A stretch of 64,000 bases of DNA, taken from the NCBI GenBank assembly GCA_020444325.1, contig JAHLLD010000002.1, positions 286,882-350,881 of the forward strand, read 5' to 3'. Both the position numbers and the translations under genes were made by a program. Position 1 is the stretch's first letter; the number at the start of each line of letters is the position of its first letter. Below are positions 9,880 through 52,557 of this stretch, one piece after another. The notes below the pieces were generated by a model, which worked only from the letters and a program-made list of their open reading frames with translations, was not told where the DNA came from and did no database searches. Origin of the DNA: a bacterium. GTDB taxonomy: Bacteria; Bacteroidota; Ignavibacteria; SZUA-365.

Positions 9880-11421
9880 TTACTGGTCTGAAACAGTGGT
9901 TGACAGCAATTCACCACGCTGTACCTGTTCCAGCTTGTCGACGACGCGCTGCATCGTGGGTTCGGTTTTCTCCATGAAGGTGCTCGGATAAATGCCGATC
10001 CACACGATGAAAAGCAGTATAGGCAGGAGCAGCCCGATTTCACGTGACGACAGGTCGACAAGTTTGCTGTTTTCCTCGCTGCGGGAGACACCGAACACCA
10101 CGCGCTGGAACATCCAGAGCATGTAGACGGCCGCAAAAACCACGCCCGTGGCAGCGAAGATGACGTACCAGTGCGAGCCCAGTACAGTGGAGTTGAAGGA
10201 GCCGAGGAGGATAAGGAATTCCCCGACAAAACCGTTGAGTCCGGGGAGGCCGATCGATGACAGTGTGACGATCATGAAGAACGTCGAGAACACCGGGATC
10301 TGTCGGGCGAGTCCGCCGAAATCTTCAATCATGCGCGTATGACGTCTGTCGTAAATCATGCCGACGATAAGGAAGAGTGCGCCGGTGGAGAGACCATGAT
10401 TGATCATCTGGATGAGTCCACCCTGCAAACCCTCAATCGTCATGCCGAAAATGCCGAGAAGAATGAAACCCATGTGGCTGACGGAGGAATAGGCCACAAG
10501 TTTTTTCACATCCTTCTGCACCATGGAAACGAGTGCTCCGTATATAATGCCCACCACGCCAAGCGCGGAAAGGACGGAGGCGAATTCAATGGAAGCCAGC
10601 GGGAAAAGCTGGAGGTTGAAACGGATCAGACCGTAGGTCCCCATTTTCAGCAGCACACCGGCCAGGATAACCGATCCGCCGGTGGGTGCCTGGACGTGTG
10701 CGTCCGGCAGCCAGGTGTGCAGCGGGAAGGCGGGAACCTTGATGAGAAAGCTCAGCGCAAAGGCCGCGAACATCCATCCTTGAATGTCGAGCGGAATCGT
10801 CGGCGCGATGTCGAAGAGCATGGTAATGTCGGTGGTGAACGTGCCGCCCGGAAGGGTGGAGGCATAGTAGCCCAGCCAGATAATGGCGATGAGCATGAGC
10901 AGCGAACCGACCATGGTGTAGATGAAGAACTTCACCGTGGCGTAAATGCGCTCTTTGCCGCCCCAGATACCGATGATGAAATACATCGGGATGAGGATCA
11001 ACTCCCAGAACACGTAAAACAGGAAGGTGTCGAGGGAGGAGAAGACGCCGATCATGGCCGTTTCAAGCAGCAGCATGAGTGCGACATAGGCGGGCACCTG
11101 CTTCGTCACGGATTTCCACGACGAAATCAGCACGATGGGAGTCAGGAAGGTGGTCAGCACCACCAGCAGCAGGGAAATCCCGTCGAGTCCGACATGATAG
11201 CTCACGTTGAGGGCGGGAATCCAGCTGACTTTCTCCACGAACTGCATCGCCGGATTTGCCGGGTCGTAGGCAAAGAACAGTTCCAGCGAGACGAGGAAGT
11301 TCAGCAGCGAGGCGCCGAGTCCCGTCCAGCGGGCGGCTCCGTCACTGCGGCGCGCGAGCAGCACGGCTGCGAGGCCGATGAGGGGGAGAAAAAGTACGAC
11401 GTTGAGAACGTGTGGAATCAT
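9880..11421 (-). CDS. nuoM: NADH-quinone oxidoreductase subunit M
   Basis: 513 aa. Antiporter-like complex I subunit with NuoM/ND4 motifs (FYVFWELILIPMYFIIGIWGG, HTWLPDAHVQAPTGGSVILAGVLLK). Confidence 0.92.
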   Translation of the reverse strand: MIPHVLNVVLFLPLIGLAAVLLARRSDGAARWTGLGASLLNFLVSLELFFAYDPANPAMQFVEKVSWIPALNVSYHVGLDGISLLLVVLTTFLTPIVLISSWKSVTKQVPAYVALMLLLETAMIGVFSSLDTFLFYVFWELILIPMYFIIGIWGGKERIYATVKFFIYTMVGSLLMLIAIIWLGYYASTLPGGTFTTDITMLFDIAPTIPLDIQGWMFAAFALSFLIKVPAFPLHTWLPDAHVQAPTGGSVILAGVLLKMGTYGLIRFNLQLFPLASIEFASVLSALGVVGIIYGALVSMVQKDVKKLVAYSSVSHMGFILLGIFGMTIEGLQGGLIQMINHGLSTGALFLIVGMIYDRRHTRMIEDFGGLARQIPVFSTFFMIVTLSSIGLPGLNGFVGEFLILLGSFNSTVLGSHWYVIFAATGVVFAAVYMLWMFQRVVFGVSRSEENSKLVDLSSREIGLLLPILLFIVWIGIYPSTFMEKTEPTMQRVVDKLEQVQRGELLSTTVSDQ

Positions 11422-11430
11422 CGTGTTGTA

Positions 11431-13368
11431 TCAGCTCAATATGATCAATCCGAGAACGATAACGATACCGAGAACGATCAGGGCGGCGTAACTCTGCACG
11501 ACGCCTGTCTGGATCACGCGAATACTGCGGCTGACCCATGCGGTCAGTGTTGCGACGCCGTTGACGATACCGTCAATGATGCGTACGTCGAACACGCGGA
11601 ACAGGAAGCTTTCCGAGGTCTTCACGAGGGGACGCACGACACTGCCGTTGTACCCCTCGTCGACATAATACTTGTTGGCAAGCAGGCGGTAGAGGAAACC
11701 GGTTTTCGCGGCAATCTTGTTGTCCGCTTCCGGGTTCTTCAAGAACACCGAGCGACCGAACCAGAAACCGATGAAGCCGATCGCGACGCTCACCGCCATG
11801 AGGATGTACTCGAGCGTGTGATTGTGATGCTCGGCCAGCGCCATGGTGTGCTCCGCCTGTGCGAAAATGGGATGCAGCCACTGGTGAATGGCGTTGCCGC
11901 CGCCGAGCACGGCGGGGATGCCGATGAAGCCGCCCACAATGGCCAGGAAAGCAAGCACGATGAGCGGAATGGTCATCGTGGCCGGGGATTCATGCGGATG
12001 CTTGTCTTTCGCCCAGCGCGGCTCGCCTTCAAAGGTGAGTGTGACCATGCGGAACATGTAGAATGCCGTCATCAGTGCTGCCAGCGCACCGATGCCCCAG
12101 AGCAGTACCGAGCCGTCAGCGAAGGATTTCCAGAGAATCTCATCCTTGGAGAAAAACCCTGCCAGCGGCGGGAAGCCCGCGATGGCGAAACTGGAGATGA
12201 GGAAGGTCCAGTACGTCTTCGGCATGACGCTCTTCAGTCCGCCCATGTAGCGAATGTCCTGCTCCTCGTGCATGGCATGAATCACCGAACCGGATCCGAG
12301 GAAGAGGCAGGCCTTGAAGAACGCATGCGTCATCACGTGGAAAATACCAGCGGTGAAAGCGCCCACACCGAGGGCGAGGAACATATATCCGAGCTGGCTG
12401 ACGGTAGAGTATGCCAGCACTTTCTTGATGTCGTTCTGTACGAGTCCGATAGACGCGGCCATGATGGCGGTGAGCGCACCGACGATGGCGACGACCATCA
12501 TGGTGTCAGGCGCCAGTGCGTACAGCGCGGAGTTGCGTGCCACCATGTAGACGCCGGCGGTAACCATGGTTGCGGCATGGATCAGGGCGCTGACGGGGGT
12601 GGGACCAGCCATGGCGTCGGGCAGCCAGACGAACAGCGGGATCTGCGCCGATTTTCCGGTTGCGCCGATGAAAAGCAGCAACGTGATCCAGAACACGGTG
12701 CTGTTCCCGACAGCCAGGTGTTCCGAACCCTGCATGACTTCATTGAACGTCAGCGAACCGAATTCCTTGAAGATCAGGAACATGCCGAGCATGAAGGCGA
12801 AGTCGCCGATGCGGTTGACCCAGAAGGCCTTGTTGCCCGCGTCACCCGTCCATGTAATGCCCACGCCGTCGAATTTCTTGTCGTACCAGAACCCGATCAG
12901 GAGGTAGGAACAGAGTCCGACACCTTCCCAGCCGAGGAACATCAGCACGTAGTTGTCGGCAAGGACGAGATTCAGCATGGCGAAAATGAACAGGTTCAGG
13001 TAGGTGAAAAACCTCCAGAAACTGCGGTCGCCGTGCATGTAGCCGATCGAGTAGACGTGAATGAGGAAACCGACACCCGTGACAACGAGGGTCATGAAGA
13101 TGGAAAGCTGGTCGACCTGGTAGGCGGCGGAAACCTTGAATGTGCCGGCGGCCAGCCAGGTGAACAGCGTAACCACGCTTCCACGCTCTTCGGCGGGCAT
13201 GCCAAGCATTTCGATGAAAATGCCTGCGGCTACGAGGAAGGAAAGCCCCACCGCGCCGCTGCCGATGCTTCCGATCAGCTTTTCATTCTTGATTTTCCGT
13301 CCGAACAGCCCGTTGATGAGCAGTCCGATCAGCGGAAAGAGTACGATAAGCCCGACGTATTGATGCAT
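11431..13368 (-). CDS. nuoL: NADH-quinone oxidoreductase subunit L
   Basis: 645 aa. NuoL/ND5 motifs (LGWEGVGLCSYLLIGFWY, LFVWLPDAMAGPTPVSALIHAATMVTAGVYM), plus the long C-terminal extension typical of NuoL. Confidence 0.92.
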   Translation of the reverse strand: MHQYVGLIVLFPLIGLLINGLFGRKIKNEKLIGSIGSGAVGLSFLVAAGIFIEMLGMPAEERGSVVTLFTWLAAGTFKVSAAYQVDQLSIFMTLVVTGVGFLIHVYSIGYMHGDRSFWRFFTYLNLFIFAMLNLVLADNYVLMFLGWEGVGLCSYLLIGFWYDKKFDGVGITWTGDAGNKAFWVNRIGDFAFMLGMFLIFKEFGSLTFNEVMQGSEHLAVGNSTVFWITLLLFIGATGKSAQIPLFVWLPDAMAGPTPVSALIHAATMVTAGVYMVARNSALYALAPDTMMVVAIVGALTAIMAASIGLVQNDIKKVLAYSTVSQLGYMFLALGVGAFTAGIFHVMTHAFFKACLFLGSGSVIHAMHEEQDIRYMGGLKSVMPKTYWTFLISSFAIAGFPPLAGFFSKDEILWKSFADGSVLLWGIGALAALMTAFYMFRMVTLTFEGEPRWAKDKHPHESPATMTIPLIVLAFLAIVGGFIGIPAVLGGGNAIHQWLHPIFAQAEHTMALAEHHNHTLEYILMAVSVAIGFIGFWFGRSVFLKNPEADNKIAAKTGFLYRLLANKYYVDEGYNGSVVRPLVKTSESFLFRVFDVRIIDGIVNGVATLTAWVSRSIRVIQTGVVQSYAALIVLGIVIVLGLIILS

Positions 13369-13442
13369 GGGTCGAAATGGACGTTATGAAGTTTCAGTAG
13401 TCGATGGATTGGTAATGCTGTCCCGCACAGGCCGAGACAGTG

Positions 13443-23470: not shown

Positions 23471-23719
23471 GCGTCACTCACAGCAACCAACGCATTGTGT
23501 GCGCGCACGGGAGATGCGCTGTGCAGAAGATGCACTGAGGTTGCGGTCTGCTGTCGCGGGACGTATGTGCGTGCAGCCTCTTCGCATGGCTGTGCGGCAA
23601 GCACCCACCCCATATTGCACTTCTGCCGCGTACTTCCGATAATAACGTGTTGCATATACGTATGCATCCCATGCCAGCACGCGACAGTCTGTATTTTCAA
23701 TGATAAGAAGGAGTACACC

Positions 23720-24007
23720 ATGGCCAACGAAGGGTATCATGAGCCTGTCTCGGAACTGTCACAGGAAACAAAGGACATGCATCGCGCACTGGTTTCACTC
23801 ATGGAAGAGCTGGAAGCGGTGGACTGGTACAACCAGCGCATGGATGTCTGTGCAAACAAGGATCTCAAATCCATCCTCAGGCACAACAGGGACGAAGAAA
23901 AGGAACACGCCGCCATGCTGGTGGAGTGGATTCGCCGCAACGATCCAAAGTTCGAAGATGAATTGAAGGACTATCTTTTCACAGACAAGTCCTTCTCCCA
24001 TGATTAA
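23720..24007 (+). CDS. encapsulated-ferritin-like (EncFtn family) small ferritin-like protein
   Basis: 95 aa. LVSLMEELEAVDWYNQRMD...ILRHNRDEEKEHAAMLVEWIRRND closely resembles EncFtn proteins (E...E..H ferroxidase motif). A perfect AAGGAG Shine-Dalgarno lies 8 nt upstream. Confidence 0.65.
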   Translation: MANEGYHEPVSELSQETKDMHRALVSLMEELEAVDWYNQRMDVCANKDLKSILRHNRDEEKEHAAMLVEWIRRNDPKFEDELKDYLFTDKSFSHD

Positions 24008-24037: not shown

Positions 24038-24613
24038 ATGGAGGCAGCCATGAGCGCCGTAGATAAAGCGCTGCAAACGCAGCTCACAAACATACAGGAG
24101 CGGACGGGGAAGAGCCTGTCGCAGCTCAAGAAGGTGATCGAGAAGAGCGGGCTCGAGAAGCACGGACAGATTCGGGACATGCTCAAGAAAGACCTGGGGA
24201 TGGGGCATGGTGATGCGAATACCCTCACGCATATTTACCTGAACGGTATGCCGGACGAAGCCTCGGGAGGAAGCGATGATGTGTTGGAGAGTATTTACAG
24301 CGGGAAAAAGGAGGTGTTTCTGCCCGTGCACGACAAGCTGATGAAGGAAATCAGTAAGTTCGGGGAATTCGAAATTGCGCCGAAGAAAACCTATGTGAGT
24401 CTGCGGCGGAAGAAACAGTTTGCCACCATCGGTCCCCCCACGAACTCACGAATGGAGGTGGGACTCAATATGAAAGATGTCGAAGCCACGGAACGACTCG
24501 AAGTGCTGCCGAAAGGACAGATGTGTCAGTACAAGGTGCGTCTCACAACCCCTGAAGAAGTGGACAAGGAATTGATCGACTGGATACGTATCGCGTATGA
24601 TTCCGCCGGTTGA
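24038..24613 (+). CDS. DUF4287/DUF5655 domain-containing protein
   Basis: 191 aa. N-terminus (LQTQLTNIQERTGKSLSQLKKVIEKSGLEKHGQIRDMLKKDLGMGHGDANTLTHIY) matches the DUF4287 pattern. Confidence 0.6.
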   Translation: MEAAMSAVDKALQTQLTNIQERTGKSLSQLKKVIEKSGLEKHGQIRDMLKKDLGMGHGDANTLTHIYLNGMPDEASGGSDDVLESIYSGKKEVFLPVHDKLMKEISKFGEFEIAPKKTYVSLRRKKQFATIGPPTNSRMEVGLNMKDVEATERLEVLPKGQMCQYKVRLTTPEEVDKELIDWIRIAYDSAG

Positions 24614-24650
24614 GCCGGATGTAATTTGTACCGTTCGAGTAGTTGAAAAC

Positions 24651-24756: not shown

Positions 24757-25521
24757 CTAGGGGACAGGGAAATTCAAGTCGAGCACGAAGCGAACGTTGT
24801 CGATTCTCCAGGTATCCGCATACGGCGCGTCGATCACGTTTGTGAGACCGAACTCGTAGATGAGCTGCGGTGTGAGGAAACCGTAGCGGAAGAAGAAATC
24901 GTAACCGAGTCCGACGCTGGCAGCATAGCGCATGCCGTTGACGTCCTCGATTTCGCCTTCCTGCGGAGGAGCAATGCTGCCGCTCGCCCATTCCGGTTCG
25001 ACAAGTGTTGCTTCATGAGAGAAATTATCCTTGATCAGCGTGCCGACATTGAGTCCGCCGCTGACGAACAGTCCGGGACCGCTCATCGGGTACAGTTTCG
25101 TGTACACGCCAAAGGTGAGGTATTGCAGTGTATAGTCGACCGTCTGGTCACGGACGACCTCACTGACAATCGTGGGATCATCGGGGTCGGCGACACGGAA
25201 GGGGTCCGTGAAGCGGCCCTCGACATCCCCCGACATCTGGTTGAATGCGAGCCGGAGACCGAACACCACGTAACGCGTCACGGATTTTTCACCCTGCACG
25301 CCGAAGAGGAAATTGGTGGTGTTGCCGTCGGCATAAAAACCGTTCTCCGCCGAGGGGAGGAGAGGCACGTTCCCGTTGTGGAAACTCTGGTTGGCTCCGA
25401 TGAAAAGTCCTCCGCGCACGGTATACCAGGCCCTGTCGCCAACCCGGAAGCCCTGCGCATGCGCTGCATACGTGCCGGCGAATGTCAGTGCAAGGAGGAG
25501 AATGATGCTGATGCGTTTCAT
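24757..25521 (-). CDS. outer-membrane beta-barrel protein (porin/OMP_b-brl family)
   Basis: 254 aa. Signal peptide MKRISIILLLALTFAGTYAAHAQ. Alternating hydrophobic beta-strand pattern, aromatic girdle residues, and a C-terminal ...FVLDLNFPVP strand. Confidence 0.65.
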   Translation of the reverse strand: MKRISIILLLALTFAGTYAAHAQGFRVGDRAWYTVRGGLFIGANQSFHNGNVPLLPSAENGFYADGNTTNFLFGVQGEKSVTRYVVFGLRLAFNQMSGDVEGRFTDPFRVADPDDPTIVSEVVRDQTVDYTLQYLTFGVYTKLYPMSGPGLFVSGGLNVGTLIKDNFSHEATLVEPEWASGSIAPPQEGEIEDVNGMRYAASVGLGYDFFFRYGFLTPQLIYEFGLTNVIDAPYADTWRIDNVRFVLDLNFPVP

Positions 25522-25532
25522 GAGTCAGCTCC

Positions 25533-28500
25533 TTAGTTGGCTATGATCAGTTTCTGGGCGCTGCGGAACGTTCCGGTTGTCATCACCACGAAGTACACTC
25601 CCGGGCGCATGCGGTCCGCCTGGTAGCGGAAGCTGTACGCACCCGATTTGAGCATGCCGCGGTGGATGACGTCGGTTTCCACACCGAGCAGGTTGTAGAG
25701 TTTGATTTCCACATAGCTGTCACGATCGACGGATACCTGGATCTGCGTTTCGCGTCCGGTCTTTCCATCAAGGACGTTGGGACGCGGCGGTGTCAGACTG
25801 GTGATGCCGAGATCGGCGAGAGTGGTGACACCGTTGCGGGGACGAATGGTAATCGTACCGCTGGTGCCATCATCCGCGGTGATCTGTGCGATGTCGGGTT
25901 CGAGCGCAGCGTTGGAAATACTCCATTCCGTGCTTGAGGTTCGTCCGACCAGCACTTCCATTGAAATCCGAACAAGTGGACCGGCGGTGAAGCGGGAGGC
26001 GGAAACCGTCACGGTCAGGCTGTTGGCGCCTGTTCGCGCGAATTCTGCACTTCCCTGACCGGCGGAGACATGGTCGGGGTTGAGTGAGATACCGTCGAAG
26101 TTGAGATCGAAACTCAGCGTTCCGTTCTCGATTTCGCAGACGAGATCTTCAGTGACGAAGACCGGGATTTCGACGATGTCACCGGGACGCGCACTGAGCT
26201 GAGGTGCCGTACCGCCATTTTCGCTCGCACTGATCGCGAAAGCGGGACGCTCGTACTCGACATTCATCGCGACGGAAATTTCACTGCCGCAGCGATTCTC
26301 CATCGCGTAGAGGGTTGCGGCGTTGCTTTCGCCTTCCATCGGCGTGTAGAGCACGTTAACCGCAGCGCGGTCATGCGCGGGAATGGTGAGCTGGGTCTGA
26401 CCGCTTTCGAAGCTGAATGCGGAAGAACCATCAATGTGCAGTGTGAGCGTCAGGTCGACGTCACCGTTGTTCATCAATTCGGCCTGGAGCATCACCGGTT
26501 CGGTCGCACAGGTGGCGGTCGCGCCGAGCGTGTCCTGCACGAACGCGTACGACACGCGACTGAGCTGTCCGGCGAACGGAATCACCTTCGTTTCGGGGAC
26601 GCATCGCATGTCACGCACCGTGGTGACCTCAAGCACACCGCTGAAGTCACGGTCCTGCTCATCAAACGGAGGCTGCACGGCGACGGTGATTTCCTGCGAC
26701 GCACCCGCTGCCACGATGAGCGGCCAGCTGAGTGGTGCCATGAAGCGAACCGGAGAATTCGCGGGCTGAATCTGACCGCTGATCTCCAGCGGTACTGCGC
26801 CTGTATTGCGGAAGATGAGTTTCTGTTCGAGCTGGGCCTGGTCATCAGGGTGGACGAAGCCGTCGGGACAGAGAAGAATGTCACCGAAGTCCAGTGCCTG
26901 CGGTTCGAGTGTGTAACTACTGTTGATGACGGTAGCCTGCACGGGGAAGGCCGCCTGAATGTCGCAGGGCGCGCCGAACAGTGTCACCAGCCCGCTGTAA
27001 TCACCCGGCTCCGTTGCGGTGAATCGTACGATGACGTTCCGCGACTGTGAGGGTTGCAGCGTGAAGGGGAACTGCTCGGGTGGATCGTAGACGAAGCCTT
27101 CCGGAAGGAGACTGCCGTCCTGCACCGTGACCGGCGTCGGTCCGGTATTCTGTACCGAAGCCGTGATCTGACGCGATTTGCTCGTCTCACAGCTCAGGAC
27201 TTCAAGGCGTCCCTGGGGACTGACATCGGTGACCTCGAAGAAGGGTTGCACACCGCGTCCGCGCACCGTAAAGGCTACGCTGTCGCTGCAGTAGTCCGAG
27301 CTGAAGAAAATGGTCTGTGCATCGATACCGACCTGGAGGGGATTGTAGCGAATCGGGAATTCGCGGTACGCACCCGGCTCCAGCGTAATCTTGAACGGTT
27401 TTGCAAGCAGCTGGAAAGGCGAGAGAGCAGTAAAGCCATCTGTCATGACCGTGAGCCGCTTGTCGCCGGTGTTCTCGACAATGAAGCCGCGAACCACCGA
27501 ACCGTCGACACAAACGTCGCCGAAGTTGGTGCTGTAGCCGTTCTCACGCACGAGGAAGCGGGGCTCATAACGTTCGCCGCGAAGGACGACGGGGAAGGTC
27601 TCCCGGCAGTAGCCTCCGGTTCCGGCGATGATTTCGAGTTCGAGGGTATCGCTGAACTTGCCGCCCATTCCCGGACGCGCAATGACATCGATTTCACGGG
27701 AATCGTTCGCCGCTATTTCCACACCCTGTGTCGGGAAGGGGATGGGACCGAGGCGCAGTTCATATTTCGAGGCTTCCGCCAGTGCGTTGAGCGTGACAGG
27801 AAGCGGCGAATTGTTTTCGATGGTGATGACACGGCTGGGACCGCTTGCACCATCGGCGCAGGAGATGATTTCTCCAAAGTCCAGCGTTTCGGGTGTGATC
27901 GAAACCTGCGGAAGGACGCGTTCACCGGCGAGGGTGAAGTACACCGTGCTGCCGCAGGGTTTGCCGAACCATTGCACGCTGCCGCCAAAGCTGCCACCGT
28001 CGCCGAGAGGCGGTTCGAAGCGAATGTATGCCTCGAAAGGATTCATCGAATCAGGCGGGATAACGATGGGAAGGCGCAGTGCCTCATCCCACGCGAAACC
28101 GTTCGGCAGTGCCGGCAGGTCTTCGAAGCGAACGGGCTCCGTGCCTGCGTTGTAAACCTGGAGCAGCATCTTCGCACTCGGTTCGCAGTTTGCCAGCGTA
28201 ATGCTGGGCGGGGTCACCGAGGAAGTCAGCAGCTGCTGCGAGAATGTCACACCGCGGAGATCTACGCTTGCCTCGAGGTCGCAGAGATTCGCGGAAATCG
28301 TAAGTGTCTCTTCGAACAGGCCCGGTGCGGTGGGATGGAAGCGTATGGGAACCACACGGTCGGCACCCGGCTGCAGCGGGAAGGTGTTGCTGAAAGCATC
28401 GATCTCGAACGGTGCGGCCACGCCGATAGTCATCAGCAGTTCCGCCGTCCCGTTGTTGACGATGCGAATGCTCTTGGCTTCGGAATACTCACCGACGCAG

Positions 28501-30311
28501 GTCGTGTCGTACAGCTGCGGCGGAAGCATGCCCGGTGTCGCGACGGCCTCAGCAAAGAACGATGGGCTCTGACGTGTGCCCTGCATGTCGATGCTGAAGC
28601 GTTCGGCGCAGATGCCGAAATCGGCTTCGATGCCGAGGACGCCAGAGATTGTCTCCGCTCCCAGACGCGCCGGCTCAATCGTCACCGTCGTCGAAGTGCC
28701 GCCCGGAAGGGAATCCGGTGCGTTCACCAGTGTGAAGCCGGAAGGTACGTTGTAGCGGAGCACCGCCAGCTGACTGTGTGCGTTTTCGAGCACGATGTCG
28801 CGTTGAGGCAGCGGGTCGACACCGCAGGCGTTGACCAGTCCGAAATCAAGTTCAAATACGTCGGCTGTGACGGTGGGTGCGATGCGGGAGGCTTCGAGCT
28901 TGAAGAGAATCTCCTGACCGCATTTGTCCGCTGCCATGATGACGTTTTCGATAATGGTACCGCGCTGCATCGGTGTGGGAGCGAACTCGATATACATTTT
29001 TACCGAGTCGCGGGCCGGAATGGCCAGCGGGAAGATATTCGGATTCTTCAGCACGAAGCCTTCGCCGAGGTCAGGAGGCGTGCTGAAATCGACACCGTTG
29101 AGTCCTTCATTGAAAAGCGTCACTGTGATCAGATCGGTCGCCTTGTCCTGGCAGCTCAGGATGGAAGGCATGCCATCGACCGTTGCAGACAGACTTGTGC
29201 GGCCGATGCGGAGAATGACCGGAATTTCAATGGTGTTCGGATCGGTGAAATCGGAAGTCAGCTCGATAGTGCCGGCATGTGTTCCCGGACAGGGAATGGC
29301 CGAGGTGATGACTTCCACTTCGAGGGAGTCATTTCCCATACCGACGGTTTTCGACAGGCGCAGCCATGGGACTGTAGGTGTGGCCGTCCATGTATAGCAA
29401 CTGAGTCCGCTGTTGGTGATGTACACCTTCTGCGGATCCGGCGGATTCTGTGTCACTACGAAGGTATCGAGTTCGGAAACCGTCACGGGGAAAGTGCGCG
29501 GGGCGTAGTTCGCAATCACCGTCTTGTTGCTGGTCATGCTGACCGTGAGAAGGTTGTTGGTACCGGATGCGTCACCCGACCAGTGCGAGAACACATAGCA
29601 GGTATCCGGGGCCGGAAGATTCAGGGCCACGAGTCCAACACCCGTCCCCGGTGCATAATCAGGCAGCAGCGGGAATCGCAGCACCTGTCCCTTGCCCGGG
29701 GGATTCACTTCAACGTTCAGCGTATATCGTGTGGGAGGCGGATCGCCATACGTTACCTCAATGAGGTAGCGGTTCGTGCCGACCGGGAGTTCCACCTGCG
29801 CCAGGGAACTCATATCCTCATCCACAATGGTGGGATCGGGATACGACACCAGACGCATGCTGGAAATGCCCGTGGCGAGGGGAAGGCTCCATTTCATCCA
29901 GGTTGTCGTCGCACCCGGGTCACGACGGACCCGAAGCTCGAAGGTCTGGGAGATGGGAGGAGCGGTGAAAATACCGCGAAGATCCTTGACGACACCGTTC
30001 CCGAGTATGGATGGCGTGCGGATATCGTTGTCGATCAGACGGGCATCGTAATTGCCGGGAACATAGGGGGGAAGCTCGACTTCACCCAGTCCCGCATCGA
30101 TGCCGTCGGATGCCGACGCATGAATGCCGATACGCAGGTCGGTGCTGTTGGCGACGTTGTCAAATACCGTCAGAACTGTCTGAATGTTCTGAGCAGCAGC
30201 CTGCTGCGTTCCCGAGGCCAGGAAGACAAGCAGTACCGCCGGTATCAACAACAGGAGCCGGGGTCTCGTAGTAACGGACGATGGCATAATCAACCTCTTA
30301 ACCTGTTGCAA
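25533..30311 (-). CDS. giant T9SS-secreted cell-surface protein with multiple choice-of-anchor-D/ASH (HYDIN-like) Ig-fold repeats and a type-A Por secretion C-terminal domain
   Basis: 1592 aa. Signal peptide. At least 8 repeats of the FG[DE][IV]..C.DG..........[IV].N.G..PL.[IV] type. C-terminus LYNLLGVETDVIHRGMLKSGAYSFRYQADRMRPGVYFVVMTTGTFRSAQKLIIAN is a canonical type-A T9SS CTD (TIGR04183-like). Confidence 0.85.
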   Translation of the reverse strand: MQQVKRLIMPSSVTTRPRLLLLIPAVLLVFLASGTQQAAAQNIQTVLTVFDNVANSTDLRIGIHASASDGIDAGLGEVELPPYVPGNYDARLIDNDIRTPSILGNGVVKDLRGIFTAPPISQTFELRVRRDPGATTTWMKWSLPLATGISSMRLVSYPDPTIVDEDMSSLAQVELPVGTNRYLIEVTYGDPPPTRYTLNVEVNPPGKGQVLRFPLLPDYAPGTGVGLVALNLPAPDTCYVFSHWSGDASGTNNLLTVSMTSNKTVIANYAPRTFPVTVSELDTFVVTQNPPDPQKVYITNSGLSCYTWTATPTVPWLRLSKTVGMGNDSLEVEVITSAIPCPGTHAGTIELTSDFTDPNTIEIPVILRIGRTSLSATVDGMPSILSCQDKATDLITVTLFNEGLNGVDFSTPPDLGEGFVLKNPNIFPLAIPARDSVKMYIEFAPTPMQRGTIIENVIMAADKCGQEILFKLEASRIAPTVTADVFELDFGLVNACGVDPLPQRDIVLENAHSQLAVLRYNVPSGFTLVNAPDSLPGGTSTTVTIEPARLGAETISGVLGIEADFGICAERFSIDMQGTRQSPSFFAEAVATPGMLPPQLYDTTCVGEYSEAKSIRIVNNGTAELLMTIGVAAPFEIDAFSNTFPLQPGADRVVPIRFHPTAPGLFEETLTISANLCDLEASVDLRGVTFSQQLLTSSVTPPSITLANCEPSAKMLLQVYNAGTEPVRFEDLPALPNGFAWDEALRLPIVIPPDSMNPFEAYIRFEPPLGDGGSFGGSVQWFGKPCGSTVYFTLAGERVLPQVSITPETLDFGEIISCADGASGPSRVITIENNSPLPVTLNALAEASKYELRLGPIPFPTQGVEIAANDSREIDVIARPGMGGKFSDTLELEIIAGTGGYCRETFPVVLRGERYEPRFLVRENGYSTNFGDVCVDGSVVRGFIVENTGDKRLTVMTDGFTALSPFQLLAKPFKITLEPGAYREFPIRYNPLQVGIDAQTIFFSSDYCSDSVAFTVRGRGVQPFFEVTDVSPQGRLEVLSCETSKSRQITASVQNTGPTPVTVQDGSLLPEGFVYDPPEQFPFTLQPSQSRNVIVRFTATEPGDYSGLVTLFGAPCDIQAAFPVQATVINSSYTLEPQALDFGDILLCPDGFVHPDDQAQLEQKLIFRNTGAVPLEISGQIQPANSPVRFMAPLSWPLIVAAGASQEITVAVQPPFDEQDRDFSGVLEVTTVRDMRCVPETKVIPFAGQLSRVSYAFVQDTLGATATCATEPVMLQAELMNNGDVDLTLTLHIDGSSAFSFESGQTQLTIPAHDRAAVNVLYTPMEGESNAATLYAMENRCGSEISVAMNVEYERPAFAISASENGGTAPQLSARPGDIVEIPVFVTEDLVCEIENGTLSFDLNFDGISLNPDHVSAGQGSAEFARTGANSLTVTVSASRFTAGPLVRISMEVLVGRTSSTEWSISNAALEPDIAQITADDGTSGTITIRPRNGVTTLADLGITSLTPPRPNVLDGKTGRETQIQVSVDRDSYVEIKLYNLLGVETDVIHRGMLKSGAYSFRYQADRMRPGVYFVVMTTGTFRSAQKLIIAN

Positions 30312-30518
30312 TTAAAGAGACTACTACCATTAACTTAAGTACTTTATGAGAAAAATGCAGTAAAAATCAAGTTTTTGTCCAAAAAAATATTTGAGGGTTT
30401 TCGGCCTGCTTTTTGGCGCATTTAACGCCGTTCTCATATCAATTCACGGAGATTATTGCTACATTCATCGTGCAAACAGTCCCTTTATATAGTAGCAAAC
30501 CGGCATGGGAGTCACTGT

Positions 30519-31271
30519 ATGCTAACGTTGTACCTGGCATGTCTCGTTTTCGGCGGCGTGCTGCTGACCATCTCGCTCTTTGCTGGAGGGGATGCGGATG
30601 CGGACGTGGATCACGGCATGGATCTGCAGGGTGATGTCGATATGGACCACTCCATCGATCTGCATGGTGACGTCGACATGGACCATACGCTGGATCTCCA
30701 GGGTGACGTGGATACCGCGGTCGATCTCCAGGCTGAATTCGGGGAAGGGGACCTCCCGGCGGATATGACAGTGGACGGGGGACATCCGGCCGTGGACACG
30801 GTGCAGGATATTGAGAGTGGGGGACATGGGACTTCCGCGCTGTCCGCTGCCTTCGAATTTTTCAGCTTCCGCAATATGGTGTACATGACCACGTTTTTCG
30901 GTTTGACCGGGAGCGTGTTAAGCTGGCTCACCATGCCGTTCGGACTTACCCTCGGGTCCTCCATCGGCATGGGACTGTTTGCCGGGGTCGTCGGCCATCG
31001 ATTCATGCGCTACCTCAAAGGCTCGGAATCCGGCGACGCCCTGCATATCGCCAGCCTCATCGGGCACGTTGCGGTCGTGACGCTGCCGGTGACGAAATTC
31101 CGTCGCGGGAAGGTGCGTGTCGAGGCGGCGGGGCAAATCGTAGAGCTGCTTTCGCTGCTGCACGAATCCAGCGAGGCGGACGAAGTGCGACCGGGGGACC
31201 GCGTGTTCATCCTTGCTCTGGAAAAGGATGTGGTCCTGGTTGACAAAGGGGATTTTCTCGAGGAACGCTGA
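30519..31271 (+). CDS. NfeD-like membrane protein (flotillin-associated) with an Asp/His-rich tandem-repeat insert
   Basis: About 251 aa. N-terminal TM helix. C-terminal OB-fold segment (KVRVEAAGQIVELL...PGDRVFILALEKDVVLV), typical of short NfeD/YqiJ proteins. 49 nt upstream of the flotillin gene. Contains four 12-aa D.D.DH..DLQG repeats. Confidence 0.68.
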   Translation: MLTLYLACLVFGGVLLTISLFAGGDADADVDHGMDLQGDVDMDHSIDLHGDVDMDHTLDLQGDVDTAVDLQAEFGEGDLPADMTVDGGHPAVDTVQDIESGGHGTSALSAAFEFFSFRNMVYMTTFFGLTGSVLSWLTMPFGLTLGSSIGMGLFAGVVGHRFMRYLKGSESGDALHIASLIGHVAVVTLPVTKFRRGKVRVEAAGQIVELLSLLHESSEADEVRPGDRVFILALEKDVVLVDKGDFLEER

Positions 31272-50497: not shown

Positions 50498-51631
50498 TTA
50501 CGGGGCGAAACGGTAGGCGATTCCACCACTGAAAATGAGATGCTTGGCAATTCCCGTGCTCGCGAAGAGCTGCATCGGACCAAGATGCCCGGTCACACCG
50601 ATCGTGGCCTTGACCGCGTCGTCGCTCAGGGAAACCGGCACGGTCTGCGGATCAATATCGTAGCCGATTTCATCCTTGATGTTCTGCGGAAGGGTGAAGG
50701 TATAGCTGCCTTCGGAATTCAATGTCTCATAGCTGATGCCCACATAGGGCTCGAGCCAGTGGAAAAAGCGCCGGCTTGCATGCAGGTTGACCGCAAAAAG
50801 GTCGGTGTCGGCCTCGAGCTTGGCCTTGGTGATGCCGACTTCATTGGTAATGGAGCTTGTCTGAAATGCGACCTGAACCGCCGCATTGAAGGGGGGATTC
50901 TCAATCCAGTTGGTAAACGCGTGTTTGACGGCGACACCGAAGAAGCTGAATTTTCCGACGTTCTCATCGAAAACGACAGGCGGAACGTAGCGCAGAAGCA
51001 GTTCAGTGCTGTAGTAGGAGCCGATGGTAAGCTGCGGCACGGCGGCAAGGACGAAATCCTGGTTCGTACCGTCCGTAAGAGGGAGCTGGCTCGGCAGTCC
51101 CGCCAGTGTGGCACTGTCGATGCCGGCAACGTTCTCGAGCAGATATTCCTTCGGCACATTGAAACCGGCACCCTTTCCTCCGAAGACGGTGGCTGTTTCC
51201 ACCTCGGGCTGCAGCTCACCCGCCGCGACAGCACCGCGCAGCTGTGTTTTGAAATAGTTCAACTGCAGGACACGCTGCCATTCTTCGGAAAGGATTGGAT
51301 AGGGATTCTCGGCATTCTCAAGCGGAAGCCGTCCGATGAAGGTGCGCTCCTCGTCGATCACAGTTGCGTACATACTTCTGACGGAAATGTCGAAGTAGAA
51401 CACGTTTTCCTTCGGCACATAGGCGCTGTTGTAAAACGCATCGTTCGCGCCGACGTTGGACACGATGACGAGCGGACTCATGAAGCCCTTGGCATTGGCC
51501 TCGAAAAGTTCACGGGAATAGTCCTCGAGCAGTGCCTTGGTATCGATTTCCACCTGTGCGCTCGCACTGGCGGTAAACATGAGGAGCAGGATGGGGAGTG
51601 CGAGGCTCCGAAGCATGATGCGTCCTTTCAT
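50498..51631 (-). CDS. secreted/outer-membrane protein of unknown function (paralog A)
   Basis: 377 aa. Signal peptide MLRSLALPILLLMFTASASAQ. Beta-rich. Shares motifs with the adjacent gene (ATVFGGKGAG vs ATVVGNKGAV; GKFSFFGVAVKHAFT vs GKVSFYGAALKHELT). Confidence 0.5.
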   Translation of the reverse strand: MKGRIMLRSLALPILLLMFTASASAQVEIDTKALLEDYSRELFEANAKGFMSPLVIVSNVGANDAFYNSAYVPKENVFYFDISVRSMYATVIDEERTFIGRLPLENAENPYPILSEEWQRVLQLNYFKTQLRGAVAAGELQPEVETATVFGGKGAGFNVPKEYLLENVAGIDSATLAGLPSQLPLTDGTNQDFVLAAVPQLTIGSYYSTELLLRYVPPVVFDENVGKFSFFGVAVKHAFTNWIENPPFNAAVQVAFQTSSITNEVGITKAKLEADTDLFAVNLHASRRFFHWLEPYVGISYETLNSEGSYTFTLPQNIKDEIGYDIDPQTVPVSLSDDAVKATIGVTGHLGPMQLFASTGIAKHLIFSGGIAYRFAP

Positions 51632-52557
51632 AAGGAGAGTCCTATTCCGATTGAGAGGTTGTCCATTTCGCCCAAACTATAACCGGCAGTGATATCAAGC
51701 AATGGGAGCAGCGTAATTGCTCCACCGAAACTGAAACGCAGATTCCGTCTGCGGAATTCCAGCGTGATGTCCTCGGGCTGCTGTCCCGTCTGCACGGGAG
51801 TGTACGTGTAACTCACATCGATGGCGTATGCTTCGTACCCGAGTCCGGCGAACAGCGTGATCGCAGCGAAGTCCCTGCTGACCAGCAGCATGCCGTTCAG
51901 GCTGTTTCCCTGTACCGCGTCTCCGATTTCAAATTGCTGGTAGCCGGCCAGAACGGCAACCTGGACGGGCGAGTCATACCAGTGGGTCAGTTCATGTTTC
52001 AGCGCGGCACCGTAAAACGATACTTTCCCGATTTCCGTGTCGAAGGTAGCGGGCGGCAGGCCGCGGAGTATGATATCGGTACCGAGAACGGGACCGAAGC
52101 TGACCTGCGGAAGCAGAAGTGCTGTCTGTCGCAGCCCGGTCCCATCCGGGAGCACGATGTCCGGTGCCGAAGACTGATTGGATTGCAGTACCGCCCCCTT
52201 GTTGCCGACGACGGTGGCGGTTGTCACATGATCGGGATAGCCTGCCGAAACCAGCGCCTCCGGCAACACGCCAACGAAGGTCTGCTGCTGCTCGGGAATA
52301 AACGTGAAGATCGCTTTTGCACCGGCCCAGATGTGAAAGGCCGTATCGACGCGTGCGGTATGCGCATACCCACTGTTGATGGTGTAGCCGATGGCATCGA
52401 CACCGGGACGCAGGTAGTCGCGCGCAAGTTCCTCGACGCCCAGTTGCTCGACGAGGTCACTCAGTGACTGCGCACGCAGCGTGACGGCAGATGGGAATAA
52501 AAATGCGGCGGTCAAAAATAGCGCCGCCGCAACAGTGTTCATTCTGCGAATATGCAT
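51628..52557 (-). CDS. secreted/outer-membrane protein of unknown function (paralog B)
   Basis: 309 aa. Signal peptide. Paralogous to 50498-51631, in tandem with a 4-nt overlap. Confidence 0.5.
   Translation of the reverse strand: MHIRRMNTVAAALFLTAAFLFPSAVTLRAQSLSDLVEQLGVEELARDYLRPGVDAIGYTINSGYAHTARVDTAFHIWAGAKAIFTFIPEQQQTFVGVLPEALVSAGYPDHVTTATVVGNKGAVLQSNQSSAPDIVLPDGTGLRQTALLLPQVSFGPVLGTDIILRGLPPATFDTEIGKVSFYGAALKHELTHWYDSPVQVAVLAGYQQFEIGDAVQGNSLNGMLLVSRDFAAITLFAGLGYEAYAIDVSYTYTPVQTGQQPEDITLEFRRRNLRFSFGGAITLLPLLDITAGYSLGEMDNLSIGIGLSL

Follow-up and report, generated by a model that had tools for sequence, protein, structure and literature searches.

A short, tag-less EncFtn-like ferritin homolog from a Bacteroidota lineage: membership of the widespread s-FLP class, absence of a nearby encapsulin gene and a possible shell-independent role

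By current understanding, rings of the EncFtn type depend on an encapsulin shell for the storage of iron, yet short, tag-less members of the family (s-FLPs) are widespread, and a crystal structure of one of them has been available since 2009. A gene of this kind lies in the window analyzed here, a 64,000-nucleotide stretch of DNA from a Bacteroidota-related metagenome-assembled genome (MAG), and it raises the question of what a protein resembling encapsulin cargo might do where no shell gene stands beside it. The initial annotation, made from the letters of the sequence, left two alternatives, namely a shell encoded elsewhere in the genome or a free ferroxidase, and these are exactly the two that the literature leaves open. 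The position and sequence of the reading frame, its neighbors and its ribosome-binding site were all found as that annotation had described them (Table 1).

Table 1. Coordinates of the s-FLP gene and the elements around it, in positions of the 64,000-nucleotide window
Feature	Position	Strand	Basis or remark
Intergenic spacer, 249 bp	23471-23719		separates the s-FLP gene from the upstream M23 peptidase gene
Shine-Dalgarno-like AAGGAG	23708-23713	+	6 nt before the ATG; read from the sequence
s-FLP gene (short EncFtn-like ferritin-like protein)	23720-24007	+	ATG start; 95 aa
DUF4287/DUF5655 gene	24038-24613	+	Pfam; 30 nt downstream of the s-FLP gene
Terminator-like hairpin with T-rich tail	24606-24628	+	consensus scan; end of the DUF4287/DUF5655 gene

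The product of the gene (MANEGYHEP...DYLFTDKSFSHD) is present in the public databases as MCB2203898.1, where it is annotated "ferritin", encapsulin-associated ferritin-like being the other label in use for it, and its closest relatives come from Bacteroidota MAGs. A longer reading of 170 aa from a TTG at 23495 was discarded as a mechanical artefact, the homologs all starting at MANEGY. In profile searches the protein matched the Pfam EncFtn-like family (PF22277) with an E-value of 1.6e-42 and 143.6 bits (cut-off 27), over profile positions 2-85 of 85, while the matches to the Rubrerythrin and COQ7 families stayed below threshold (Rubrerythrin: 17.9 bits, E 0.004, with the cut-off at 22.8). It barely passed the cut-off of the NCBIfam model TIGR04535 (ferrit_encaps, "encapsulin-associated ferritin-like protein"; 129.9 bits against 125), and as the alignment covers positions 1-86 of the 114 in that profile, it is the C-terminal, tag-bearing part that is missing in the window protein. 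The residues of the ferroxidase center are E30, E60 and H63 with Y37 (equivalent to E32, E62, H65 and Y39 of the Rhodospirillum rubrum protein, hereafter R. rubrum); those of the putative entry site are E29, E32 and W36 (R. rubrum E31, E34 and W38), and those of the outer site H55, E59 and E62. All three sets are invariant across 79 distinct s-FLPs and 26 tag-bearing EncFtns. An AlphaFold2 model built with 42 homologs (pLDDT 87.1) has helices at 15-43, 47-74 and 76-87, that is, two long antiparallel helices followed by a short C-terminal one, as in the EncFtn-like architecture, with an 8-residue, low-confidence tail after the last helix. Its best fold matches in the PDB are 3K6C and the EncFtns of R. 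rubrum (5DA5) and Haliangium ochraceum (hereafter H. ochraceum), with TM-scores of about 0.8 (0.79-0.84 for 3K6C and 5DA5). Based on the PF22277 match and the complete set of catalytic residues, the EncFtn-type identity proposed in the initial annotation holds, and the predicted fold agrees with it.

The closest protein of solved structure, by both sequence and fold, is NE0167 of Nitrosomonas europaea (PDB 3K6C), the s-FLP type, which is likewise of 95 aa and is 71% identical to the window protein (67 of 95 positions without gaps, E 5e-43). The two share the N-terminus MAN[E/D]GY.EP, the tail pattern LFT.K...H[D/E] and the absence of a targeting peptide; they differ in the end of the tail, SFSHD in the window protein versus PIAHE in NE0167, and in their hosts, a Bacteroidota-related MAG versus a betaproteobacterial nitrifier. 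They further differ in that the window protein keeps W36 whereas NE0167 has a leucine there, and as this tryptophan, which has been implicated in the entry of metal, is invariant in the 79 s-FLPs and 26 EncFtns, 3K6C is atypical there. The 3K6C entry holds 10 chains. A full-text literature search for NE0167 returned the Eren et al. 2024 review alone and no functional study. Among the next-best solved relatives, the R. rubrum EncFtn (Rru_A0973, 5DA5) is 59% identical over the 87-residue core, and together with Hoch_3836 of H. ochraceum (5N5F) it shares the ferroxidase-center, entry-site and outer-site residues as well as the two-helix fold (TM-score about 0.8). Unlike these FLP-TP/EncFtn proteins, the window protein has no disordered linker of 30-50 aa, no terminal tag of the form ...LGIGSLK and no encapsulin gene downstream. 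The archaeal fusion of an Flp domain to encapsulin (Pyrococcus furiosus PFC_05175, 5N5E/2E0Z) contains an EncFtn-type domain that is matched weakly (E 0.058), and its shell domain is wholly absent from the window protein. Classical ferritin, bacterioferritin, Dps and rubrerythrin share with it the ferritin-like superfamily, a di-iron carboxylate site and the ExxH motif; in these proteins, however, a single chain makes up the whole four-helix bundle, and the bundles assemble into dimers or into closed cages of 12 or 24 subunits; the window protein matches them below threshold.

Eren et al. 2024 group the encapsulated ferritin-like proteins into FLP-TP, fusion-FLP, IMEF and s-FLP (PMC11202242); the s-FLPs had originally been classed as non-encapsulated, with 3K6C as an unpublished decamer (PMC11202242). 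The s-FLPs are defined by a length of about 95 aa, an EncFtn core and the lack of both a long disordered C-terminus and an apparent targeting peptide. The window protein agrees with them in every one of these features, and by sequence it is a member of this class, which, like its type structure and the question of its encapsulation, is already in the literature. To its size and conservation our searches add the following. A word-indexed protein search returned at least 8000 scored candidates, all with E<=1e-5, and the best 120 of these are nearly all exactly 95 aa long and 74-95% identical. The EncFtn family as a whole comprised 1305 clusters at E<=1e-3 in an exhaustive search of 50%-identity representatives, which, as many of them are frameshifted or mis-started, were used solely to contrast C-termini. 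For genomic context one genome per species was scanned, and the best 80 of more than 555 confirmed loci were kept. The proteins from these 80 loci range from 94 to 99 aa, and 74 of the 81 obtained on adding the window gene have exactly 95. Their hosts span at least five phyla, among them Gamma-, Beta- and Alphaproteobacteria, Bacteroidota, Campylobacterota, Bdellovibrionota and others, and many of them are sulfur oxidizers, nitrifiers or methanotrophs. Across the 74 proteins with exactly 95 residues (the window protein and 73 genomic ones) pairwise identity is 73-100% with a median of 84%, and 45 of the 95 positions are invariant, a pattern that points to strong purifying selection on s-FLPs across phyla. 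N3, M20, N38, C44, E81, D84, K90 and H94 are invariant within the s-FLPs and not in their tag-bearing relatives.

These conservation data bear directly on the proposition that the gene is a functionless remnant of an EncFtn-encapsulin operon that has lost its shell gene and tag. Both of these are indeed absent, but the reading frame is intact, is preceded by a good ribosome-binding site and has exactly the 95 codons of most of its relatives; all catalytic residues are kept, along with the positions that are invariant across phyla; its GC3 of 0.65 is similar to that of the adjoining genes; and both the gene and its neighbor are conserved in related MAGs. Decay of this kind is, hence, effectively refuted, and we regard it as highly improbable. 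We also rejected spread by mobile elements, as there were no phage matches to s-FLP and no sign of recent transfer, none of the seven plasmid or chromid matches was an intact s-FLP of the clade of the window protein, and GC3 resembles that of the neighbors. Two unusual relatives were encountered during the searches. A metagenomic protein of 112 aa (P0006) is an s-FLP variant with an internal tandem duplication of 17 residues (DWYNQRVDAC...), spanning the Trp and Tyr beside the ferroxidase center, and is either a real variant or an assembly artefact. A bacterial-type s-FLP of 76% identity lies on a 428-kb contig labeled as coming from an uncultured Halobacteria archaeon (CAVYIJ010000001.1, L024), which reflects either mis-binning or mislabeling, or transfer between domains.

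We then considered whether the short C-terminus might nonetheless carry a shell-targeting signal. The chain ends 8 residues past the last helix with LFTDKSFSHD, and it has no L-x-[IV]-G-S-L peptide after a disordered linker and no Gly/Ser-rich cargo-loading peptide, the absence of which had been correctly noted at first reading. The tag-bearing relatives extend through a linker of 30-50 aa and end in ...LGIGSLK, ...LTVGSL or ...FTIGSL. Relative to the s-FLP tail consensus LFTD(E/N)KPIAHE, the window protein keeps L86, F87, T88, D89, K90 and H94 and departs from it at the variable positions 91-93. An ending of the form LFTDKxIAH[D/E] (within DYLFTDKxIAH[D/E]) is found in nearly all 80 genomic homologs, with H94 in 99% and K90 in 95% of them. 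In a comparison with Table 2 of PMC11202242, this tail lacks the hydrophobic-x-hydrophobic-G-S-L pattern found in every known targeting peptide. Eren et al. 2024 raise as a possibility that LFTD(E/N)KPIAHE binds a shell (PMC11202242), and a tether of 8-10 aa, as in the archaeal fusion proteins, is considered to be sterically sufficient (PMC11202242).

No encapsulin gene accompanies the s-FLP gene in the window. Neither Pfam searches of about 45 ORFs of >=150 aa, which cover the whole window, nor NCBIfam searches of the Pfam-negative ones detected an encapsulin, and the Thermotoga maritima encapsulin (hereafter T. maritima) had no match at E<=10 in the six frames of the window by either phmmer or tblastn. 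This query was confirmed to be the 3DKT chain (589 bits over 265 of 265 residues) and was validated in that it recovered, at E<=1e-10, the encapsulins of R. rubrum, H. ochraceum, M. tuberculosis, K. pneumoniae and M. xanthus. The initial claim that no shell gene is adjacent is accordingly upheld, and extends to all 64 kb of the window, out of a contig of at least 525 kb; the HK97-fold (Linocin_M18) gene that usually follows the gene of an encapsulin cargo is not present. Three ORFs of the window have no Pfam or NCBIfam match (10339-13389 on the + strand, 1016 aa; 50540-51682, +, 380 aa; and 30456-31271, +, 271 aa), none of which is encapsulin-like by phmmer, the 271-aa ORF preceding a Band_7 (flotillin-like) gene. 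The same holds beyond the window: an encapsulin within 10 kb was found at none of 81 s-FLP loci (the 80 relatives and the window; 1.26 Mb searched), with the proviso that, as each genome contributed about 20 kb, a shell gene at a random position would be expected to turn up less than once in 80 genomes. As a positive control, we examined three loci of tag-bearing EncFtns (P0215, P0298 and P0174), and in all three the next gene downstream, overlapping the stop codon, codes for an encapsulin, recognized as Linocin_M18 by Pfam and by phmmer with E-values of 8e-48, 8e-15 and 3e-8, the latter two shells being clipped by contig ends. Shell adjacency is the rule for the tagged forms and is absent for the sampled short forms. 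A view of the gene as an unusual orphan or a split locus is not supported, as it is one representative of a very large and tightly conserved class of 95-aa proteins, of whose sampled relatives 80 of 80 have no encapsulin nearby. None of the genera with s-FLPs occurs among the listed entries of the Andreas & Giessen 2021 catalogue, an absence that is uninformative on this point.

It could still be argued that s-FLPs are loaded into an encapsulin whose gene lies in another part of the genome, with the LFTDKxIAH[D/E] tail acting as a non-canonical targeting sequence and the two products together forming a split EncFtn-encapsulin iron store. Such an arrangement would fit the near-universal retention of the tail and the adequacy of so short a tether, and it would answer to the inability of EncFtn rings to store iron by themselves (bioRxiv 10.1101/431494); secondary encapsulin cargos with genes remote from that of the shell are also known, though these carry targeting peptides. 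Against it speak the contrast between the s-FLP loci and the independent tag-bearing controls, the lack of the hydrophobic-x-hydrophobic-G-S-L pattern and the absence of any partner-like family among the Pfam families of the neighboring genes described below. We accordingly consider split cargo unlikely, though it deserves to be kept in view.

Turning to the immediate neighborhood of the gene, Pfam identified the upstream gene as a 773-aa M23 peptidase and confirmed the DUF4287/DUF5655 assignment that had been made for the downstream one. The short gap and shared strand of the s-FLP and DUF4287/DUF5655 genes, together with the hairpin at the end of the latter, suggest a two-gene transcript, and the pair is probably co-transcribed, although the terminator scan is purely a pattern match that found 3 such sites against 1.4 expected. 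A related locus with an s-FLP of 83% identity (L083) has the same sequence of M23 peptidase, s-FLP and DUF4287/DUF5655 genes, and the s-FLP-DUF4287/DUF5655 pair is kept in related MAGs at 95% (L082) and 83% identity (L084-L086), whereas a DUF4287/DUF5655 homolog was found near the s-FLP gene at none of the 80 other loci. As the pair is limited to the Bacteroidota lineage of the window, we interpret it as lineage synteny rather than as a family-wide partnership, and, with no relevant literature found either, DUF4287/DUF5655 was rejected as a functional partner. In L082 two further genes are conserved beside the pair, one for a 1592-aa repetitive surface protein with Ig-like/Flg_new_2 repeats (25533-30311 in the window, - strand), and the other, after it, for a 254-aa outer-membrane beta-barrel protein (24757-25521, - strand).

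The initial annotation had further suggested regulation by iron or oxidative stress, based on two motifs in the upstream spacer. Both are present in the window (GATAATAACG at 23638-23647 and ATACGTAT at 23656-23663), but at 95% (L082) and 83% (L083) protein identity each is absent or not conserved. Alignment with these two loci indicates that a segment of about 165 bp in the spacer, at roughly 23472-23636, is confined to the lineage of the window and missing from both, that the AGGAG core is the sole conserved upstream element, and that the gene start also aligns. Searches for Fur and PerR boxes gave no better footing for this suggestion. The best match to the E. coli Fur-box consensus is 10 of 19, a score equalled in 88% of windows of the same size, and the 7-1-7 and hexamer-repeat Fur variants are at background level in the spacer. 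A PerR-like match to the B. subtilis-type consensus (23695-23709, 10 of 14 positions) ranks within the top 1.2%; we do not take it as regulatory evidence, since it runs into the ribosome-binding site, is not kept in L082 or L083 and comes from one of four consensus sequences tried. In the spacer neither an Rfam family nor a fold signal (z -0.27 and +1.11) was detected, its repeats are short and at chance level, and it has no second copy in the window; upstream of the gene there is no sigma-70-type promoter on the + strand and no Bacteroidetes -7 motif TAnnTTTG, which in the window as a whole is rarer than chance. At the level of sequence, then, the regulation hypothesis is without support.

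Conserved gene neighborhoods across the class were examined by tblastn anchoring, six-frame searches and a codon-usage gene caller. When the six-frame ORFs near the 80 s-FLP genes were clustered all against all, no conserved partner emerged. In a Pfam census of the nearest genes, the 77 on the downstream side held 94 different families and the 73 on the upstream side 86, and none of these families recurs as a partner would. The sole recurrent context is an oxidative-stress operon with rubrerythrin, RFO and DUF3501, present at eight or nine of the 80 loci (L004, L019, L023, L026, L027, L037, L043, L054 and L077), in Chromatiaceae, Sedimenticola, Sulfuricella, Ca. Thiodiazotropha and others. At most of these the s-FLP gene (at about 10001-10288 of the full-length loci) is flanked, at distances of <=25 bp and in one shared orientation, by the genes for the CCG-domain Fe-S oxidoreductase (RFO) and DUF3501, and in six of them rubrerythrin is encoded about 1.4 kb upstream of it. 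The cluster of aerobic-type rubrerythrin, RFO and DUF3501 was described as an oxidative-stress module by Cardenas et al. 2016 (PMC5114695); a description of the four-gene arrangement rubrerythrin-RFO-s-FLP-DUF3501, which from its gene order we read as an oxidative-stress operon, was not found in the literature consulted and appears to go beyond it. Five further loci have a gene for a glutathione-reductase-like flavoprotein nearby, and a few others have genes for GGDEF/EAL proteins. Separately, the Thiobacillus-type loci (L008, L040, L050 and L070) contain a conserved ORF, coiled-coil-like and without a Pfam match, of about 104-119 aa on the same strand and directly upstream of the s-FLP gene at about 55-60 bp, and often a gene for a PAS-GGDEF-EAL protein downstream on the opposite strand.

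The above associations raise the possibility that s-FLPs are accessory subunits of a peroxide- or oxygen-reducing system, in which the di-iron site would act as an oxidase or peroxidase alongside aerobic-type rubrerythrin, RFO, DUF3501 or other redox partners. The insertion of the s-FLP gene into an already described stress module and the flavoprotein genes near other loci are in keeping with such a role. On the other hand, about 90% of the loci, including that of the window, have no such neighbors, the ferroxidase-center residues are identical to those of the characterized EncFtns, and the association seen in a subset may reflect a shared stress regulon and nothing further. On balance, we judge a dedicated accessory function improbable, and slightly more so than split cargo.

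In light of the core and catalytic residues that the window protein has in common with the EncFtns, its prediction as a decameric ferroxidase is well supported by homology. Isolated EncFtn cores have been shown to form metal-dependent decamers that oxidize Fe(II) without retaining the mineral (PMC5012862), and truncated, tag-less EncFtns are likewise decamers and active ferroxidases that do not store iron (bioRxiv 10.1101/431494). By homology to NE0167/3K6C and these proteins, the two-helix monomers of the window protein would pair through metal-bridged interfaces, each of which would contain a di-iron ferroxidase center formed by E30, E60 and H63 of both chains, with Y37 nearby, and five such dimers would assemble into an open, ring-shaped decamer that oxidizes Fe(II) to Fe(III). 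The role of such a ring would be an oxidant-consuming detoxification rather than an iron store, with the Fe(III) product passed on to other acceptors; given that a free EncFtn ring does not hold Fe(III), some partner is still to be expected. The lack of linkage to a shell, the lack of a known tag pattern, the diversity of the neighbors and the recurrence of the peroxide-defense operon make a free enzyme the most likely of the readings considered, and we propose that the protein probably acts as a free cytoplasmic decameric ferroxidase that detoxifies Fe(II) and oxidants. The decamer, the ferroxidase activity, the shell-independence in vivo and the physiological role are all inferred by us from these comparisons.

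Taken by itself the gene of the window is ordinary, while the s-FLP class to which it belongs is a recognized loose end. What we appear to add to the literature that we found is the absence of a shell near s-FLP genes, established against a positive control, and the rubrerythrin-RFO-s-FLP-DUF3501 arrangement, both of which pertain to the class and not to this locus in particular. The lack of a linked shell across the 81 loci, the lack of a conserved partner and the presence of about 10% of the genes in a rubrerythrin operon favor a shell-independent, stress-related role. On a more tentative note, which we would put at a little under even chances, the s-FLPs may constitute a shell-independent branch of the EncFtn family, made up of free decameric ferroxidases under extreme purifying selection, in which the His-containing tail and the s-FLP-specific surface residues (the eight positions from N3 to H94 listed above) would serve a partner or a metal-handling step, and which would have been recruited into the rubrerythrin-RFO-DUF3501 operon in sulfur-oxidizing or gradient-dwelling bacteria. 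For those annotating genomes, "encapsulin-associated ferritin-like protein" is probably a misleading label for s-FLPs; and such a branch, if real, would overturn the assumption that EncFtn-type proteins need an encapsulin to be useful.
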